From a virus (taxonomy: Duplodnaviria; Caudoviricetes): DNA of 64,000 nucleotides. Position 1 is the first letter of the stretch. Every line of letters starts with the position of its first letter. The stretch lies in IMG/VR virus record IMGVR_UViG_3300036713_000599; one strand, given 5' to 3'. The notes under the pieces are model-generated. The model searched no databases. It saw nothing but the letters and a program-made list of their open reading frames with translations, and had not been told where the DNA came from. Position numbers and translations under genes: made by a program. Below, in pieces: positions 10,799 to 30,696 of this stretch.

Positions 10799-11421
10799 GT
10801 GAGGTTGCCTTCGTCTTTCCGCATACGGAGTTTGGATAGAATCCAAGGGCCGTGGACGGTGGAACAAAAAAGGCCGCCGGCCCACCTCTTCCGGTCGTAG
10901 TCGGACAAATCTTTCATGGCTCTGTCGCGTCGCATGGCGATGTTGTGTGCTGCCGCCCTGATCATATCGTCTCGGTACCGGCCCCAGTAGGGGGCGTGGG
11001 CCATAACCCAGACAGAATAGTCAACTTGCCCTTCTTCGTAGAATGGATCTCCCTCAGGAAAATCGTTTAGGTTCGCGTGAAGCAGCTCATGGCAGACTTT
11101 TTCGAGAGTCGTCCCTGGCCTGCCCTCAACATAGTCTTTACATAGCCGGATCTGGCCGTTGGATGGCTGGAAACTTGCGTTGGCTCCTGCCGCGTGAAAA
11201 GGGTCTTCGATGGGTAGGATGTTAGGAGAAGGTTCTTTCTGGAACGGTCCCAGGCACTCGTGTATGAAAACATAGCACTTGTAGGCAGACCTTTCGATAA
11301 AACGATCCCAGTTGTTTCCACAGATCTTGCTTTCGAAGAGTGTGGTGAGAGCGGCTGTCCGGGACTTAAGTAGCCGTCTAGAGGTGCTGTTGAGTTGTTC
11401 TTGGACTTCTTTGGGCAGCAT
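10792..11421 (-). CDS. Zincin-like HExxH metalloprotein
   Basis: LEKVCHELLHANL, downstream EEG. Confidence 0.6.
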   Translation of the reverse strand: MLPKEVQEQLNSTSRRLLKSRTAALTTLFESKICGNNWDRFIERSAYKCYVFIHECLGPFQKEPSPNILPIEDPFHAAGANASFQPSNGQIRLCKDYVEGRPGTTLEKVCHELLHANLNDFPEGDPFYEEGQVDYSVWVMAHAPYWGRYRDDMIRAAAHNIAMRRDRAMKDLSDYDRKRWAGGLFCSTVHGPWILSKLRMRKDEGNLTW

Positions 11422-11477
11422 ATCAACTCACATGGGGTACAAGAACTTCTTGTGCCCATCTTTCTATAGGAGATATC

Positions 11478-11720
11478 ATGTACAACTACGATCGTACTGC
11501 CAGTTCAGACGAACAGAAAGCTTCTGACCTTGTCAAGTTGGTTCGAGAGGCCGAGCAGCATCGCCGCAAGGCAGAAATGTCGCTAATAAAGGCCAAACTA
11601 GTGGTCAAGTCCTTGGACCCTGTGTTAGTCAAGGAATACAATAAGACGGTAGATCATCTCTCCAAGGCATCCAAAATGATCGACGATCTGTATCGGAAGG
11701 CGGTGGAGATTAGAGGCTAG
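11478..11720 (+). CDS. Small helical protein with DRTASSD motif
   Basis: GGAG SD; MYNYDRTASSDEQK. Confidence 0.7.
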   Translation: MYNYDRTASSDEQKASDLVKLVREAEQHRRKAEMSLIKAKLVVKSLDPVLVKEYNKTVDHLSKASKMIDDLYRKAVEIRG

Positions 11721-16227: not shown

Positions 16228-16503
16228 TTACGAGGAGCTTGTAAAGACACCGCGCACCCATGAAACTACTAGGGCTAGGAGACCTCCTATGAACACGGCG
16301 TTGAGGAACAACAAGCCTCCCATGTCGTGGTGAATGAGTCTCCCGCCCCAATGTAGGAGGCTGGGGAGGCGGCTGACATCTGGCTGGATGGACAACTCCG
16401 TCTCTAGCTGAATTTGAGGATTTGCTAGGAGATCCACGACGGCGTAGACGAGGATACCTATAGTGTTGATTCCCCAGAGGAGCAGGAACTTTTTGACACT
16501 CAC
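16228..16503 (-). CDS. Small 2-TM membrane protein (holin-like candidate)
   Basis: Two hydrophobic segments in 91 aa. Confidence 0.55.
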   Translation of the reverse strand: MSVKKFLLLWGINTIGILVYAVVDLLANPQIQLETELSIQPDVSRLPSLLHWGGRLIHHDMGGLLFLNAVFIGGLLALVVSWVRGVFTSSS

Positions 16504-16976: not shown

Positions 16977-17438
16977 TTATCTGAGCGTGTTCGAGGGCTG
17001 TGTGTCTGGTACAGGTTCTTCGTCCGTGTTCAACCCGTCCGGTAGATCTTCCGAGAACGTGTTCCGCCTTTTTCGTTCGATGGCGAACGCGACGCGTCGG
17101 AAGATCATGGTTGTGTTGGTGAAGTTTTTGACGATGAAGTCCTCTGCTCCGAGTCGGATCATCCGGAGAGCCAGTTGCAGGTCGGTCGTATTGCTGACCA
17201 CTACAATAGGTATCTCCGGGTATGCGTTGTGTAGTGTCAAGAAGGTGTCGATACCGGACGAGTCAGGTAAATGTAGGTCCAGGATGACGCAGTCGAACAC
17301 GCCTCGCTCCAGGTAGTCACGAGCAGACTGTAGGTTACCTACCTCTCGGAACTTGGCCTCAGAGATGTAATGCTCTTGAAGGGCGAACACGAGGAGTTCT
17401 CGGTCAACGGAGCTGTCTTCGACGATCAGGATGTTCAC
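16977..17438 (-). CDS. Response regulator receiver (CheY-like)
   Basis: ILIVEDS, VILDLHLPD (phospho-Asp), IVVVS, DFIVK. Confidence 0.92.
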   Translation of the reverse strand: MNILIVEDSSVDRELLVFALQEHYISEAKFREVGNLQSARDYLERGVFDCVILDLHLPDSSGIDTFLTLHNAYPEIPIVVVSNTTDLQLALRMIRLGAEDFIVKNFTNTTMIFRRVAFAIERKRRNTFSEDLPDGLNTDEEPVPDTQPSNTLR

Positions 17439-17713
17439 ACGGCCTCCTCTATCTTTTTGACAGGAACGTGCCCTTTTGGCCCTTCAATGACACCATCTTC
17501 GATCGGCCACCCTTTTTGTAGCGCCAGTGCGTCGATATCCCGTCCGCGGACAACAGCACTTGCGATGTCTTTGGCTTGGCCACTTGAGAGCCCTGTCTCC
17601 TCACGGATCATTTGAACAAGTCTTTTGACTTTGTTTTCTTTCTTTTCTTTTGGCTGGTATTTAAAGGCTTCTTTAAGGTATCTTTGGACGACACGTGCGG
17701 TAATAGATCCCAT
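17435..17713 (-). CDS. Small protein with N-terminal ITARVVxRYL motif
   Basis: MGSITARVVQRYL; stop overlaps the REC start; alternative start at 17728. Confidence 0.7.
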   Translation of the reverse strand: MGSITARVVQRYLKEAFKYQPKEKKENKVKRLVQMIREETGLSSGQAKDIASAVVRGRDIDALALQKGWPIEDGVIEGPKGHVPVKKIEEAV

Positions 17714-17829
17714 GCTTACGTCATACATAGGTAAATTTTCGGCAGTGTCTTAGGTTTGGCCGCAGTTCAGCAGACCGGGGCACTGATTTCTGTGGCCGGG
17801 TGCTGCAGGCTTGAGCTTTACCAGACAGA

Positions 17830-18270
17830 CTAGGAGGGTGTGTAGGGAGGGGGCGTGCTTCTGTGGGGTAGTAAGGTGAACTGTAGCCACAGGTAGTGGA
17901 GTTTTCGGGCTAACCTCAACAGCTTCGGGAAACCTACAGGTTTTCGCACGAAGGCGTTGCATCTGCACTCATATGCTTTCTGTACGTCCTGAGGGTGTTT
18001 GGAATTGGTCAGGATGACAACAGGTATCAGGTTGATGTCGGGGTCGGCGTCTTGTCGGATCTCTTTGAGTACTTCAAGTCCACCTACCTTGGGCATATTT
18101 AGATCAAGTAGGACCAGTTTTGGTTTTTTGGGCATCCCTCTCAGAGTTTTAAGCGCAGCTTCCCCGTCCGTTGCAATCGTTATTGACGGCATGTGTGTAC
18201 AGGCATCCCTGAAAGCTTCTGTGAGAAGCTCGGCATCGGTCGCATTATCCTCAACCAGGAGTATGTCCAT
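17830..18270 (-). CDS. Rcp1-like single-domain response regulator
   Basis: DILLVEDN, LVLLDLNMPKVGGLEVLKEIR, IPVVILTNS...DVQKAY...NAFVRKP: Rcp1/phytochrome-partner pattern. Confidence 0.92.
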   Translation of the reverse strand: MDILLVEDNATDAELLTEAFRDACTHMPSITIATDGEAALKTLRGMPKKPKLVLLDLNMPKVGGLEVLKEIRQDADPDINLIPVVILTNSKHPQDVQKAYECRCNAFVRKPVGFPKLLRLARKLHYLWLQFTLLPHRSTPPPYTPS

Positions 18271-19348
18271 TTTCGACCCTAGGTAGTGTGAAATGGAATT
18301 TTGTACCTACCCCTGGTTTCGACCAAGGCCAGATTTTACCTCCGTGTTGCTCTATAACGCGGCGCGCGATGGCGAGACCGATCCCTGTGCCAGGGTACTG
18401 TTCGATCGTATACAGGCGTTGAAAGACACCGAAGATCTTGTTTTTGTGTTGCATGTCAAAACCGATCCCGTTATCGCTTACAGTAATCTTCCACAAAAAC
18501 GGGCCGTACGGTTCCACTTCTATTTTGATGTGAGGCGGTTCGTTTTTCCGTCGGTACTTGATCGCGTTCGAAAATAGATTCTGAATAACTTGGGCGACCA
18601 TACTACGGTCACCATGGATGAGAGGCATGTCGCCCGCTACTTCGATGCGTGCCTTAGATGTGTCTATTTTTCTGACTAGTGACCGTTTTGCTTCCTCAAT
18701 GGCAGCCCCTAACGGGAAAGGCTCGAAGGGTCTTTCTTGGCCTGCCTTCGAAAAGGCCAGAAGATCGTCTAGCTTTTTTTCCATCTGTTGTGAAACGGTC
18801 ACGATCCGGTCTAGAAAATGACACCCTCGTTCGTCTAGGGCGGACTGGTACCTTTTTTGTAGAAGGGTCGCGAATCCTGCAATCCCGGTGAGAGGCTCAC
18901 GGAGGTCGTGTGACACCAGAGACGTGAACTGAGTGAGAGCCTGGTTGACCTCTTGGAGCTTGTGTTGGTGTTCGACGGACTCTGAGATGTCTCTGGTAAT
19001 TACGACGGCAGTATTGTTCGAAGATTTTCCCATATGGGCTTGAAAGTGCTCCAAAGTACCGTTCTTTTTAGGCACAGAGTAAGACAGTATCGCACTCTCT
19101 CCTGTTTCAATGACTTTGCGGACAGCTTCTGTGATCTTGTTCGCGACGTCTTCAGGTAACAGGTCTCTGACATTTTCGCCTATGGGTTTGTTGGTGGAGG
19201 TGAACAGGTACCGCCCTTCTGCGTCGATTTCCGACACAGGATCAGGAAGGGCTTTCATGATACCGTGCAACCTGCCTAGAACTCTCCCTCTCGGGCACTG
19301 GTGTTCGTTCTCACACCTTGGTGGAGTATTTGGGATTATTTGTGTCAT
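18251..19348 (-). CDS. PAS-HisKA-HATPase sensor histidine kinase (Cph1/BphP-type kinase module)
   Basis: SHDLREPL H-box, QNLFSNAIKY N-box, DNGIGF G1, IFGVFQRL...PGTGIGLAI F/G2; one PAS, no GAF/PHY. Confidence 0.93.
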   Translation of the reverse strand: MTQIIPNTPPRCENEHQCPRGRVLGRLHGIMKALPDPVSEIDAEGRYLFTSTNKPIGENVRDLLPEDVANKITEAVRKVIETGESAILSYSVPKKNGTLEHFQAHMGKSSNNTAVVITRDISESVEHQHKLQEVNQALTQFTSLVSHDLREPLTGIAGFATLLQKRYQSALDERGCHFLDRIVTVSQQMEKKLDDLLAFSKAGQERPFEPFPLGAAIEEAKRSLVRKIDTSKARIEVAGDMPLIHGDRSMVAQVIQNLFSNAIKYRRKNEPPHIKIEVEPYGPFLWKITVSDNGIGFDMQHKNKIFGVFQRLYTIEQYPGTGIGLAIARRVIEQHGGKIWPWSKPGVGTKFHFTLPRVENGHTPG

Positions 19349-20316
19349 TGGCTGTTACTTGGTGGTGGTGTGGTCTCGATTGGTGCCGTGATGGTGGTTT
19401 TTTTGTTGGTGTTGGCCGCGAAGTAGGTCGCAGCTGCTGTGGCAAGTACGCCGAACAGAGTTAGGGCGGCGATAACTACCTTTACCCACAGGTCCATCTT
19501 GGTTCGCATTGTCTGGTTGTGTTCCTTGAGCACCGTCATACCTGTCTCAGTCACTTCGTCGTGTAGACCGTCGACGTTGCCTTCGAGAACACTGATCCGG
19601 TGGTCCAGGAGGTCAACCTGGGAACGCATACTTGGGCGATTACTGTGACCTCGCAACAGTTCTTTGTCCAAGAGTGTGACTGTTTTGATTATTTCGTCTT
19701 GCTGTAGCCCTTGTTTGGCGATCTTGAGGCTGATGTCTTGCAGTGCTGAGAAAGTCTTTCGGGACAGATCTGCCACAGCTGAGGTGGTTTCAACTTGCAT
19801 GTCTCGAATAGTGTCGGCACTGGCCCCCCTCTTTTGGGCTTTGTTCATCTTTAACTTTGTGCTAGACACTCGACGAAAACTATCCGCCTCTGTGGGTTCT
19901 AGTCTTACATTTCGTTTGTGTTTTTCGATGGCGAACACGATGCGTCGAAAAATGTCTTCTTCGTCTGTGTACTTTTTTAAAATGAAGTCGGCGGCCCCTG
20001 ATTGGATCATTTCGACTGCGAGGAGCCGATCCTTGTTGTTGGTCATCACAATGAACGGCACATGGGGGTACTGGTCGTATAGTTTTTTGAATGTTTCTTT
20101 GCCGATCGAATCAGGCAGATGAAGGTCGAGTACAACACAGTCGATTGTCTCAGTGTCCAGGATATGAACAGCTGCCGCCAGGGACGGTGCTTCGTACAAA
20201 GTTACCTCTCCTCGGAATTGTTCTTGGAGCAGGTACCGTAGGATTTCTCGGTCCGGGGCTCTGTCTTCTACGAGCAGTATGTGTTGCATTTCAAGTAATA
20301 TGGGCCACAAATGCAT
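19345..20316 (-). CDS. Receiver domain fused to coiled coil and C-terminal TM helix (likely start 20289)
   Basis: ILLVEDR, VVLDLHLPD, FILKK; then heptads and WVKVVIAALTLFGVLATAAATYFA. Confidence 0.85.
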   Translation of the reverse strand: MHLWPILLEMQHILLVEDRAPDREILRYLLQEQFRGEVTLYEAPSLAAAVHILDTETIDCVVLDLHLPDSIGKETFKKLYDQYPHVPFIVMTNNKDRLLAVEMIQSGAADFILKKYTDEEDIFRRIVFAIEKHKRNVRLEPTEADSFRRVSSTKLKMNKAQKRGASADTIRDMQVETTSAVADLSRKTFSALQDISLKIAKQGLQQDEIIKTVTLLDKELLRGHSNRPSMRSQVDLLDHRISVLEGNVDGLHDEVTETGMTVLKEHNQTMRTKMDLWVKVVIAALTLFGVLATAAATYFAANTNKKTTITAPIETTPPPSNSQ

Positions 20317-20723
20317 TTGCGACGACCAGAGGAGCAGTAAGAGTTCGGGTCTTTTGTTGCGGCTGGTATACAGTGTAGAGATACCGAGGTAACACGGTTA
20401 CCGGTAGGATCAGATGACGGCTTTCTACGAGAAGGCAGTGTTGGTGTCGGATTTAGTGATTAGGAGGTGTAGCATGGTTTGGAGATTTTCCAGTTTTGTT
20501 GGATTTTTCACTGTCAGGGTCCCAGGGCAAGAGGATCAGAAATATTCTGAGTTCTGTGAGGCTGCGGATGCTGTTATCAGGTCTAAGAAATATACGATGC
20601 TTTTCGATCCGTGCGGTGATCTTATGTTGACCAAAGGATCCCCCTCTTGATTGCTTGTGTGGAGCTGGTTGTTCCGGGGAGACGTACGAGATCTTGTTCT
20701 GGGCTTGATTCCTGGTGAAAATA

Positions 20724-26760: not shown

Positions 26761-29700
26761 ATGGAGATTGTCAAAACGCGTCAACTGTCTCAGGTCCGAC
26801 TCAGCGAGAATTTTCTCGCCCCTTATCGCCAGAAGGGGGATGTCTTCGAAACGTTGTTGGCAAGGTCAACGTATTTGACCAAGTACTCCAGAGATAAGGA
26901 GGGGCCGTTATCGCACGAGTGTTGGACAGATACAATCAAACGAGTCGTGGAAGGAAATGTTAATCTCGCCCCTGGTGTGAGCGTGGAGGAGGCTCAGTTA
27001 CTATTTCACTTATTCTGGACAGGACAGGCTATGCCTCCAGGCCGTGGCCTGTGGACGGGAGGGGTCGAAGGTATCCCTGCGGACGCTCGTTATAATTGCT
27101 GGTTCACAACTCTGCGGGACATTGATGACTGGTGTTGGACGGCTAACCAGCTTATGCTTGGAGGTGGTGTAGGTGTCGGCCTAACTGAGATCGATTCTCT
27201 GCCGACGGTTTCAGAGGGAAATGCTCGTTTCGCAGTATGGTGTCGGGACAACCACCCCAATCTCGGAGAAGTGGACCCTAACGGTCCTGAGTTCCTTAAT
27301 GGCCAGACTCCTGTATTTAAGTGCGAGGATTCCCGTGAAGGGTGGGTCGCATCTTTTCGGAATGTCTTGGACTCAGCTTTCCGCGGCCAGGACTTGATTG
27401 TCGACGTGTCCGAGGTTCGGCCCAGGGGTGAGCCGATTAAGACATTCGGCGGAACCGCCTGTGGTCCGGGCCCTCTTGTACATCTCCTTCGCTCTTCTTG
27501 GGATTATATCCGGCAGGCGAGAGGCCGCCGATTGTCGTCGGTAGAGGCCCTTGATATCACGAACCACGTTGGTTTGTGCATTAAGGCAGGAAATGTCCGT
27601 CGTTGTCTACCTGGGAACACTTTGGTACACACAGAGACAGGCCTTGTGCCTATTAGGGACGTCAAAGTAGGAGACAAGGTAGCTACTTCTGGGACTAGGA
27701 GTGAGCGTTACATGCCTGTGACAGCCCACATGGATCAGGGGAGGCAGCGGTTGGTGGAGATCGAGAACCAGATGGGTATTTTTCGGTGCACGGGTAACCA
27801 CCTAGTTGCTGTGATGACTGGCATCGGCACGTACGAGTTTAAAAAGGCTTCCGAACTGAAGCCTGGGTCGAGGATGGCTTTTGTTAACCATGACATCCCA
27901 GGAGATGTCACCGAACTCCCGTCTTGGGGGTATGACTGTTCTGAAGATTCAACCGCCTGTGCCGACATCTCGGTTCCAGAATTAACTTCAGAGGTTGCTT
28001 GGTTCTTGGGGTATTTTCTTGGGGGCGGTTACGTTAGAGCTGACCATAAAGAGAACGGGTTCAATGCTGAAGTGGTTATGGCTGTGGCTAACGACGTTGA
28101 TGCTGCGGCCATTGTGGATCGACTGGATTCTGTGTTCTCTGCTTTTGGTGTGAGCACTAGTAAGACTCATCCGAGTAGCTGTGATGACAGCTGGGAGGTT
28201 CGAGCCACGTCCAAACAGTTGGCTCGGTACTTCTGCGAGAACTTCAAACAACCGGAGACAGCCACTAAGGTGCCTGAATGCGTTCTTCGTGGCACTCTTA
28301 GAGTTCGGGCAGCATTTCTCGCGGGTGTCTTGGATTCAGGTGGTCACAACAATAAGCCTGTGGTTTTGTGTGCGTCTGTGTACCCCACTTTCTTGGAGGA
28401 GCTACAGTCTGTTTATGCCAGTATTGGAATCCCTACCAGGCTTAAGTTGAACCGTCCCGAAAAAGACACTTGGCAGCCGATGTGCCATTTAAGCCTCGTG
28501 GGGACAGAGGCCGTGAGCTTCTTCGGGGAAAAAGTCCAGTCTTTTGTTTTTCGTTCGAACAGCAAACAGGCGACAACCCACTTGTTTAGTAGGCTCGGAG
28601 GGGACACAAAGGGACTTTGTCCTATCGAGGTCCTAGAGGTTCGTGATTCTGAGATTTTTTCCGACACTTATGATATTGAGGTTGCCGGAGCTGAGGAGTT
28701 CGTGGCATCCGGTTTGCTCGTACACAATTCCGCTCTCATTACGTTAGGTCATATTTCTGACCAAGAATTCCGTGATGCGAAGAAGGACTCTGCTGCCGTG
28801 ATGAGCCATCGTCACACAAGCAACAACTCTGTAGCTTTCCAGGACTGGGATCAGCTTAATAATTTTGACTGGCGTGGGTTGGTGGCTGATAACATTGATT
28901 TCGGTGAACCAGGGATCTTGAATTTACCCCTTGGTCGTCAGACAGATCCTGGCGTAAAGGGTGTGAATCCGTGTTTCAGTGGGGACACTCGCATTGCTGT
29001 AGCTGATGGCCGTGATTCTGTTACCATCCAAGAACTCGCTGAGGCAGGGGTTGACGTTCCTGTTTATTCTGTGAGTCGCCAGACAGGCAAAGTGGAGATC
29101 AAGATGGGTCGCCATCCTCGCATTACTGGTTTTGGTAAGGAGTTGTTGCGTGTCTGGTTGGACGACGGTGGTTACTTGGACACCACACCTGACCATAGTT
29201 TCCTGCGGCTCGACGGCTCAAAGGTTAGTGCGTGTGACCTGGTACCTGGAGACAGCCTTCCCAGGTTCACTGCCACGGGAGAACATGTCCATTGTGATAC
29301 CCGGGATCCCTCTGTAGAGGCGACACCCAAGAGCCAACTAGTCGTCCCAGTTCTTCAAGAAGACAACGATTCTGCTTCGGTGACTAAAAAGTGTGAGGTG
29401 TGCGGGACCCTGTTCGAGACTCTCCGTGGGTTTAGGGAGAGATCTTTTTGTTCTGATACGTGTGTGAGCGCATACTCTAATCACGAAGACCGGCTCTCTG
29501 CTCCTAAGATCGAATCAGAGCAGGCACGTGTTTGTTCTGGTCTTATGTTTGAGTTAGGTCGAGACCCCAGCCATATCGAATGGTCTCATGCCTGTGCGGT
29601 CGAGGGTGTGGCTTACCACCTAGGCCTGGCTTCCAGTTTCCGACATTTTAGGGAGGTCCTTTCTGCAGGGGCTGCCTACAACCACCGTGTTGTAAAGGTG

Positions 29701-30696
29701 GAGAAACTTCCCGGAGAGCATACGGTCTACAATATAACGGTGGACGACCACCACACCGTGGCTGTGATCACTGAAAGTGCTCTTAAAAAGGACGGGGTTC
29801 ACCACACTGGAGTTTACGTAGCACAGTGTGGTGAACAACTTTTGCATGACCGTGAGGCGTGTAACTTGGCAGAAGTTTTCCCTGCCAAGTTTGGGGCGGG
29901 GACCGACCCTATCACTGTATTCCGGCTTGTGACTCGTTATTGTCTGAGGCAGCGCCTTACTCCACTTTCCGACGAGAGGAGTCATGCTGTAGGTAAACGT
30001 AATATGCGTGTGGGCGTGGGCCTTGGAGGTATTTGCGACTTTGAGTGGACCCCTGAGCTTCTCGCCAGGTGGTTCGGTGCATGTCGTCGTGAAGCTGATT
30101 CGTATGCTGAGGAGCTTGGTGTGAGCAAGCCCATAACAGTGACGACAGTTAAGCCTAGTGGTACCATTTCTTTGGTTAACAGTTCCAGTCCTGGTGTACA
30201 TGCTTCGCACTCTCCTTACTACATCCGTCGCGTTCGGATTGCGAAGAATGATCCAATGTCGGCTGCGATGGCAGAGGCTGGCGTAACCTTCGAAGAGGAC
30301 TTGTGCGACGAGACCCACAACACCTGGGTGTACTCCTTCCCCATGAAGGCGGACAATCCGAAGGTCACTAAGGAAAGTGAGACACTTCGTGATCAATTTG
30401 AGCGCCAGGCGACCATCCAGGAGTGGTGGGCAGACAACGCGGTGTCGAGTACCATAAACTTCGATGCTGAGACCGAAAGGGAGGAGCTTGCAGCATGTTT
30501 CGAGGAGTTCGTCCCTCGCCTTAAGTCTACTGCGGTACTTCCTAAAGGTCATGGGTACGTCCAGGCCCCATACGAAGCTATTGACGAGGCGACGTACAAG
30601 GAGATGGCTCGCGGCATCAATCACGACAGTAAACTTGTGGGCGGTGGGGATATCGAGGTGGAAGAATGTGAGGGAGGCGTGTGCCCAATACGCTGA
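26761..30696 (+). CDS. nrdJ: Class II (AdoCbl) ribonucleotide reductase NrdJ with two inteins (651 aa after splicing)
   Basis: MPPGRGLW, GEPIKTFGGTACGPGPL, GNVRR|SALI, NP|CGEQ, ACNLAEV, TTVKPSGTISL, C-terminal CEGGVCPIR. Confidence 0.93.
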   Translation: MEIVKTRQLSQVRLSENFLAPYRQKGDVFETLLARSTYLTKYSRDKEGPLSHECWTDTIKRVVEGNVNLAPGVSVEEAQLLFHLFWTGQAMPPGRGLWTGGVEGIPADARYNCWFTTLRDIDDWCWTANQLMLGGGVGVGLTEIDSLPTVSEGNARFAVWCRDNHPNLGEVDPNGPEFLNGQTPVFKCEDSREGWVASFRNVLDSAFRGQDLIVDVSEVRPRGEPIKTFGGTACGPGPLVHLLRSSWDYIRQARGRRLSSVEALDITNHVGLCIKAGNVRRCLPGNTLVHTETGLVPIRDVKVGDKVATSGTRSERYMPVTAHMDQGRQRLVEIENQMGIFRCTGNHLVAVMTGIGTYEFKKASELKPGSRMAFVNHDIPGDVTELPSWGYDCSEDSTACADISVPELTSEVAWFLGYFLGGGYVRADHKENGFNAEVVMAVANDVDAAAIVDRLDSVFSAFGVSTSKTHPSSCDDSWEVRATSKQLARYFCENFKQPETATKVPECVLRGTLRVRAAFLAGVLDSGGHNNKPVVLCASVYPTFLEELQSVYASIGIPTRLKLNRPEKDTWQPMCHLSLVGTEAVSFFGEKVQSFVFRSNSKQATTHLFSRLGGDTKGLCPIEVLEVRDSEIFSDTYDIEVAGAEEFVASGLLVHNSALITLGHISDQEFRDAKKDSAAVMSHRHTSNNSVAFQDWDQLNNFDWRGLVADNIDFGEPGILNLPLGRQTDPGVKGVNPCFSGDTRIAVADGRDSVTIQELAEAGVDVPVYSVSRQTGKVEIKMGRHPRITGFGKELLRVWLDDGGYLDTTPDHSFLRLDGSKVSACDLVPGDSLPRFTATGEHVHCDTRDPSVEATPKSQLVVPVLQEDNDSASVTKKCEVCGTLFETLRGFRERSFCSDTCVSAYSNHEDRLSAPKIESEQARVCSGLMFELGRDPSHIEWSHACAVEGVAYHLGLASSFRHFREVLSAGAAYNHRVVKVEKLPGEHTVYNITVDDHHTVAVITESALKKDGVHHTGVYVAQCGEQLLHDREACNLAEVFPAKFGAGTDPITVFRLVTRYCLRQRLTPLSDERSHAVGKRNMRVGVGLGGICDFEWTPELLARWFGACRREADSYAEELGVSKPITVTTVKPSGTISLVNSSSPGVHASHSPYYIRRVRIAKNDPMSAAMAEAGVTFEEDLCDETHNTWVYSFPMKADNPKVTKESETLRDQFERQATIQEWWADNAVSSTINFDAETEREELAACFEEFVPRLKSTAVLPKGHGYVQAPYEAIDEATYKEMARGINHDSKLVGGGDIEVEECEGGVCPIR
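27604..28728 (+). mobile_element. Intein 1 in NrdJ (375 aa) with degenerate LAGLIDADG domain
   Basis: Starts CLPGNTLV, ends GLLVHN, +1 Ser; motifs LGYFLGGG and FLAGVLDSGG. Confidence 0.92.
28972..29826 (+). mobile_element. Intein 2 in NrdJ (285 aa), non-canonical Ala-Gln C-terminus
   Basis: Starts CFSGDTRI; block F VYNITVDDHHT; ends VYVAQ; +1 is the catalytic Cys of NPCGE. Confidence 0.88.

Follow-up and report, generated by a model that had tools for sequence, protein, structure and literature searches.

A response regulator with a predicted membrane-anchored helical tail in a huge phage, and a phage-specific output module shared with stand-alone proteins

The IMG/VR virus record IMGVR_UViG_3300036713_000599 (Duplodnaviria; Caudoviricetes) is linear, comprises 240,951 bp, is estimated to be ~50% complete and is part of a huge phage genome. 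A 64,000-nucleotide stretch of this record (hereafter the window, to which positions refer unless another contig is named) carries on its minus strand a gene for a two-component response regulator whose receiver (REC) domain is followed by a long helical tail that ends in a single transmembrane (TM) helix. This protein, here called the tail-anchored response regulator, is predicted to be anchored in the membrane and to serve as the output regulator for a two-component system carried by the huge phage, and its tail is a new phage-specific response-regulator output module. A first-pass annotation had described an intact receiver whose output is neither DNA-binding nor enzymatic; this description holds, the output being a helical, TM-anchored tail instead.

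The open reading frame (ORF) of the regulator (19345..20316, −) is open from its first ATG and encodes 323 amino acids, the stop codon being included in the coordinates. The true start is probably M10 (20287..20289, −, with its first base at 20289), because most homologues begin with MRILLVED at that alignment column; the protein would then have 314 residues. The public gene call P0001 (284 amino acids) begins at residue 40 and cuts off part of the receiver, and its start is evidently a mis-call. The REC domain itself (residues 13–135; 19912..20280, −) is supported by Pfam, AlphaFold2, Foldseek and conservation. PF00072 matches residues 13–121 with an E-value of 7.4e-19 (68.4 bits against a curated cut-off of 30.2). 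In the AlphaFold2 model, made from 33 homologues and with a mean predicted local distance difference test (pLDDT) score of 79.6, the receiver adopts the canonical (βα)5 fold with five strand/helix pairs and pLDDT >90, and Foldseek searches with the full model return receivers only (FixJ, PhoB, NtrC1; E ~1e-8 to 1e-6). The key residues are all present: the acidic pair E17/D18, the acceptor D64 (within VVLDLHLPDS, 20107–20136), T92, F111 and K114. D64 and K114 are invariant in the 33 sequences and the remaining key residues are at least 90% conserved; because of this conservation across homologues, the receiver should be phosphorylatable.

Residues 136–276 are predicted to be helical (helices at 141–162, 167–221, 230–251 after a turn, and 260–271), and AlphaFold2 adds a helix at 276–306. 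The first-pass annotation had read about 150 residues of coiled coil here; a helical stretch of that order exists, but its first part is modelled as an antiparallel hairpin and not as one continuous coiled coil. In this hairpin (residues 141–221; 19654..19896, −) helix 141–162 packs on helix 167–221 with pLDDT 85–97 in both the full-length and the tail-only models. The tail holds two strongly conserved polar segments. One, VETTSAVADLSRK, lies inside the hairpin (19750–19794, −, from the family alignment); the other, LDKELLRGHSxRPSMRSQVDLLxHR, spans the turn between helices. The most conserved motif of the tail is LDKELLRGHSNRPSMRSQVDLLDHR (residues 216–240; 19597..19671, −), a helix-turn-helix junction in which L221, G223, P228 and M230 are invariant. 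These segments are followed on the 3′ side by a coiled-coil spacer (residues 241–272; 19501..19596, −), recognized by its heptad score and low pLDDT and variable in length and sequence among homologues; heptad periodicity peaks at residues ~205–255. A conserved stretch then comprises a basic juxtamembrane segment (MRTKMDL) and the TM helix (together 19417..19509, −; hydropathy 2.14), and the helix itself, WVKVVIAALTLFGVLATAAATYFA, corresponds to residues 277–300 (19417–19488). Exactly one C-terminal TM segment is present in 33 of 33 homologues, as the first-pass annotation had stated for this protein. The last 23 residues (19348..19416, −) form a polar, Pro/Thr-rich tail that is probably periplasmic, because REC must meet a soluble kinase. 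When two copies of the tail alone were modelled as a homodimer, the prediction scored 0.08 against a mark of 0.42, a value that speaks neither for nor against dimerization.

The first-pass annotation had proposed looking for the same fusion elsewhere, and it was readily recovered. A word-indexed search with the tail alone as query yielded 33 proteins of 250–365 amino acids, all with REC, tail and TM helix and with REC as the sole Pfam domain. An exhaustive profile search of 1.8 billion representative proteins returned 60 matches at E ≤ 1e-3; ~35–45 proteins have the architecture of REC, helical tail and C-terminal TM helix, and wherever a longer form was found, REC was its sole additional domain. 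Gene surroundings are phage-like for all family members whose context was read. When 185,579 prokaryote genomes were scanned by pattern, none proved to encode a relative of the fused tail, and there is therefore no clue to the host.

The tail also exists as an autonomous phage module. In the search of 1.8 billion proteins, the tail profile matched, at profile positions ~40–170 and E-values of 1e-8 to 1e-4, stand-alone proteins of 115–180 amino acids that consist of two N-terminal helices, a G-N-G-x-P-S-[LM] turn, a coiled coil, basic residues and a C-terminal TM helix. Alignment of the fused-tail profile with the stand-alone profile by hhalign gave 99.1% probability and E 3.8e-19 over 120 columns, a comparison that is partly circular in that the stand-alone proteins were picked from tail-profile hits; in the same alignment, the LDKELLRGHSNRPSMRSQVDLLDHR junction corresponds to G-N-G-x-P-S-L in the stand-alone proteins. 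A profile built from stand-alone proteins only matches the window tail with E 5.1e-14 over positions 21–139 of 141, and because it recovers this tail the homology loop is closed; to judge from these profiles, the stand-alone proteins are true homologues of residues ~179–303 of the regulator. They differ from it in having neither a receiver nor the first hairpin helix, only some of them are paired with a REC gene, and the family partly overlaps phrog_2990. In all, ~30 independent stand-alone contexts were collected; at 20 loci recovered by means of the GNGQPS pattern, no REC gene adjoins the stand-alone gene. Some stand-alone genes follow very large, presumably structural, genes. In a large aquatic subgroup the neighbours encode glycosyl-, sulfo- and methyltransferases and a SET-domain protein. 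A conserved protein of ~189 amino acids is encoded directly 3′ of the stand-alone gene in many aquatic phage contigs (L027:5046–5615, L029:1177–1743 and equivalents in L019, L022, L025, L026, L030, L033, L034 and L037); the L029 copy is of the 2H-SAK phosphoesterase type (PF22547, 1.6e-11), and two H-x-[TV] motifs are kept in the L029 and L019 copies, both histidines being lost in most others. The genes 3′ of other stand-alone genes matched no lysis PHROGs.

The fused and the stand-alone forms are linked by split systems. In four independent contigs (L006; L010/L011; L017, which also carries a terminase gene; and a 4.3-kb ENA contig) the stand-alone gene lies directly 3′ of a gene for a REC protein of 163–167 amino acids, and the two genes overlap in three of the four. 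The C-terminal helix of these split REC proteins, ~40 residues long, aligns with helix 141–162 of the fused protein up to residue ~175, and the stand-alone proteins align from residue 179 on, so that the two are complementary and the pair is a split form of the fused regulator. Because the one part ends at ~175 and the other starts at 179, the break falls inside the confidently modelled hairpin (pLDDT 85–97), between its two helices. In split systems the two proteins may therefore reassemble the hairpin, which in both forms would serve as the conduit from receiver to membrane. Contig L017 additionally has, just 5′ of its pair of REC and coiled-coil/TM genes (L017:4539–5186), two small ORFs of 50 and 57 amino acids with two TM segments each, which are possible holin-like neighbours.

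The gene of the fused regulator belongs to a two-component operon. Its stop codon overlaps by 4 bp (ATGA) the start of a gene for a histidine kinase of 365 amino acids (18251..19348, −) with Pfam architecture PAS_4-HisKA-HATPase_c; no hydrophobic segment is present, and the kinase is soluble. It is the likely cognate partner of the regulator, translationally coupled to it, and phosphotransfer between the two is predicted. The 3′ end of the kinase gene is in turn overlapped by the gene for a single-domain receiver of 146 amino acids (REC146; 17830..18270, −; Pfam 3.4e-20), which would be a second branch or a phosphate sink of the pathway. The order of tail-anchored regulator, PAS kinase and REC is constant in contigs of 372 and 441 kb, from which L003 and L004 come, and of 182 and 155 kb, and tblastn found the regulator, kinase and REC146 in four of four related phages. 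A soluble kinase gene lies directly 3′ of the regulator gene in each of six independent relatives examined, L003, L004, L013, L014 and L041 among them; REC146 is kept in the first four and absent in L041, a 36-kb contig in which a divergent regulator of 265 amino acids has a kinase of 251 amino acids without PAS as its sole partner and no further receiver. The invariant unit is thus the tail-anchored regulator plus a soluble kinase, and the minimal pair in L041 argues that the regulator is the output of the pathway and not an accessory. The L041 kinase (10816–11571) is a HisKA-HATPase_c core without a sensor domain, and its input must therefore come from elsewhere or from expression level.

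The 241-kb record has three receivers only, the third being the soluble REC153 (153 amino acids; 16977..17438, −), which shares 47% identity with the receiver of the tail-anchored regulator, is accessory and is missing from some relatives. An ORF of 97 amino acids without a family match (17435–17728, −) directly precedes REC153 in the window and in L003 and is conserved in three of four related phages by tblastn; together with REC153 it may form a second soluble branch or a competitor. Further downstream, the first-pass annotation had noted a small protein with two TM segments (16228–16503, −; 91 amino acids, GTG start). The two hydrophobic stretches are real, but tblastn detected the ORF in none of four related phages, and a 121-amino-acid ORF in another frame overlaps it; for these two reasons it was dropped as a possible partner, and it is probably not part of the system, its status as a gene being doubtful.

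From these parts a mechanism can be sketched. REC and the helical region would be cytoplasmic, with only ~23 residues in the periplasm, and the soluble kinase would phosphorylate D64 in the cytoplasm. Phosphorylation would alter the α4-β5-α5 face of the receiver, and the change would pass along a conserved RxVR linker and through the hairpin until it reaches the coiled coil, where it may alter the association of TM-anchored tails in the inner membrane. Control of lysis timing, in which the tail would either resemble a holin or regulate one, as an antiholin or an XhlA-like element, is a tentative proposal, and a doubtful one; the PAS kinase would then sense a cue in the cytoplasm, such as energy or redox state, and bring forward or postpone membrane permeabilization. 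Lysis timing is the best single candidate process, and other phospho-switched membrane functions, taken as a class, are about equally likely. The full form of the proposal, in which a phage-encoded His-Asp phosphorelay (in small phages, REC plus a membrane sensor such as ETR1_N-PAS) acts as the switch for tail-anchored holins or antiholins of a new class and lysis is set by a chemical or energetic cue, is speculative and rather improbable.

A clue to a lysis function comes from a small phage-like contig. In L010 (L010:5790–8391; also in L011) a tight block of genes encodes, in this order, an ETR1_N-PAS sensor, a REC protein (REC167), a coiled-coil/TM protein (P0065) and a GH19 endolysin (phrog_181, E 5.5e-84). 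The sensor is ethylene-receptor-like, with ETR1_N, three TM segments and PAS and without a kinase core. The P0065 gene and the start of the endolysin gene share 4 bp, and the vicinity holds no further small TM gene; P0065 lies in the classical holin position, and the block looks like a sensor-equipped lysis cassette. This case carries weight only because the genes overlap and no other holin candidate is nearby. Searches by tblastn against 50,697 GenBank phages gave no match for P0065 or for the tail of the fused regulator.

Several observations weigh against a role in lysis. Only one of the ~30 independent stand-alone contexts adjoins an endolysin gene, which is about chance level, and most stand-alone genes lie outside lysis cassettes, the large aquatic subgroup standing next to the 2H-SAK-like gene in a glycosyl/sulfotransferase cluster. 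Among the contexts read, P0065 of L010/L011 is the only protein of the family whose gene lies beside an endolysin gene. The gene of the huge-phage regulator sits amid replication and chaperone genes, and no recognized lysin is encoded within 10 kb of it in the window, L003, L004 or L013. Searches of the 241-kb record and of the records of three relatives for Phage_lysozyme, Amidase_2, GH19 and SLT found nothing convincing, other lysin families not having been searched and the records being incomplete; the only trace among these four families was a sub-threshold SLT match ~100 kb away. To our knowledge, there is no characterized precedent for a holin with one C-terminal TM helix and a 270-residue cytoplasmic domain. 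The suggestion of the first-pass annotation that phosphorylation gates a membrane effector such as a lysis timer has gained real but thin support, from the autonomy of the module, its pairing with REC and the one case in a holin position, against the lack of an endolysin near the gene itself and the non-conservation of the downstream two-TM ORF.

Profile and structure comparisons bear on the same question. The tail-anchored regulator has the XhlA-type layout, a cytoplasmic coiled coil followed by a single C-terminal TM helix, and in this respect the XhlA- or holin-like tail of the first-pass annotation is borne out; neither the tail nor the stand-alone proteins, however, match XhlA, holins or any Pfam or PHROG family significantly, which also counts against a lytic role. 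XhlA (PF10779) appears in three of the 33 fused tails with a best E-value of 0.1; PHROG 937 ("hemolysin") does not match the window tail and reaches E 0.003–0.05 in a few stand-alone proteins. The coiled-coil families DUF1664, DUF5798, DUF1515, FlaC and phrog_2990 were rejected as the identity of the tail or the stand-alone proteins, their Pfam and PHROG matches being sub-threshold only, although phrog_2990 reaches 1e-4 in a few stand-alone proteins. DUF7201 (PF23831) was likewise rejected: it is an ESM Atlas look-alike only (26 of the 30 nearest clusters, score 0.90), and its hidden Markov model gave no match in the record even at E 10. An XhlA look-alike cluster first appears in the ESM Atlas at rank 21 (score 0.88). 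In the structure search with the tail alone, the best VIA-align Z-score, 8.1, went to generic helical hairpins such as those of Rrp47, Mediator, nsp8 and Snf7; this lies within helical-protein noise and again lends lysis no support, and the tail-only model had no BFVD match at E ≤ 1e-3. A PDB sequence profile search with the tail returned coiled-coil noise, the P22 gp26 needle being best at E 0.008. These structure searches do not place the tail in any known fold, whether lytic or not. In particular, the known non-lytic membrane anchor that the first-pass annotation had named as the outcome that would speak against its idea was found by neither profile nor structure searches.

A phospho-regulated membrane effector outside lysis is likewise possible without being probable; it might organize or remodel the inner membrane at an assembly or replication site, block superinfecting DNA or control a host membrane machine. 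Such a role would suit the position of the gene in an early- or middle-looking region beside the genes for GroEL, clamp-loader, ribonucleotide reductase and ligase, as well as the stand-alone genes that lie outside lysis cassettes, some of them after large structural genes or in surface-modification clusters, and the strong conservation of the turn motif suggests a specific partner. The kinase gene is, however, the only conserved adjoining gene, with no other partner kept, and the endolysin-adjacent cassette of L010 would be left unexplained. The weak resemblance of the hairpin to ESCRT-III/Snf7-type hairpins (Z ~7) would fit membrane remodeling but is at noise level, as structural matches in general are not above the helical-protein background.

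Two further explanations would take the regulator out of the output role. Were the tail a membrane tether that localizes a receiver so as to recruit or drain the kinase, REC146 and REC153 would be the real outputs and the tail-anchored regulator would tune them as a phosphate sink; three receivers do share one kinase, REC153 is a close soluble paralogue, and multi-receiver phosphate-sink designs are known in chemotaxis-type pathways. In L041, however, the tail-anchored regulator is the sole receiver beside the kinase, and the tail is conserved beyond the needs of an anchor, with its four invariant junction residues, and exists as an autonomous family. A mere tether or sink is unlikely in view of this minimal regulator–kinase pair and of a tail that is both conserved and autonomous. 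A decoy, in which the tethered receiver titrates or dephosphorylates host membrane histidine kinases and thereby blunts envelope-stress or defense signaling, appears very unlikely. Membrane placement would bring REC beside host kinases, and kinase sequestration by non-cognate regulators is documented in bacteria (PMC10368727); the translationally coupled kinase that the regulator has in every relative examined argues instead for a self-contained pathway and disfavors the decoy.

The wider neighborhood of the operon includes genes for GroEL, clamp-loader delta and delta′ subunits, NAD-ligase, RecD2, RecA and an intein-bearing class II ribonucleotide reductase, as well as for a papain-like protease, a DNA methylase, a dCTP deaminase and a sigma-70-like protein. 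Intein sequences with Intein_splicing, LAGLIDADG_3 and HINT matches interrupt the gene for the class II ribonucleotide reductase (26761–30696, +). G+C content is ~51% and base composition is uniform. A scan for sigma-70 promoters and terminators gave no signal above background. The sequence CCGAAC-N18-CGT occurs at 20322–20348 (−), immediately 5′ of the first ATG of the regulator ORF; four other copies of the CCGAAC motif in the window (2280, 4561, 6488 and 16938) have N16 spacing, and the motif has seven matches in total against 2.1 expected. Because of the difference in spacing (N18 vs. N16), the copy 5′ of the regulator ORF can be regarded only as a weak candidate for a promoter read by a phage sigma factor.

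Among known systems, FrzS and AglZ of Myxococcus and the diguanylate cyclase DgcR resemble the tail-anchored regulator in having an N-terminal receiver followed by a long helical or coiled-coil output segment, and Foldseek searches with the full model return DgcR along with other REC-helix proteins. Unlike the tail-anchored regulator, these are cellular proteins without a TM anchor; in the phage protein the tail is the entire output and also occurs as a separate phage protein, and its phospho-acceptor residues are conserved whereas the FrzS receiver is degenerate. XhlA of the Bacillus prophage PBSX (PF10779, PHROG 937) shares the phage-encoded cytoplasmic coiled coil and single C-terminal TM helix, and its lysis module also includes a holin and an amidase, a position to which that of P0065, directly 5′ of an endolysin gene, is comparable. 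XhlA differs in its length of ~90 amino acids and in having neither the G-x-G-x-P-S turn nor a receiver, and its mechanism is itself unsettled. Lysis inhibition in T4 (holin T with the antiholins RI and RIII) is a functional analogy only, in that a signal adjusts lysis timing via a membrane holin; no relation in sequence or architecture exists, and superinfection is sensed by a periplasmic antiholin and not by His-Asp phosphotransfer.

Response regulators are defined by their outputs, and a tail-anchored helical module that is confined to phages and occurs fused or split constitutes a new output class. The literature searched describes neither a response regulator anchored by its tail nor a receiver within a lysis cassette. 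Mutants of D64, compared with wild type, offer a clean experimental handle on the module. Should the link to the endolysin cassette be borne out, lysis timing would for the first time be seen under two-component control, which bears on a long-standing question outside the T4 lysis-inhibition paradigm, and a small, switchable membrane-permeabilizing part would be gained. More generally, huge phages carry complete signaling pathways whose end point is the membrane and not DNA.

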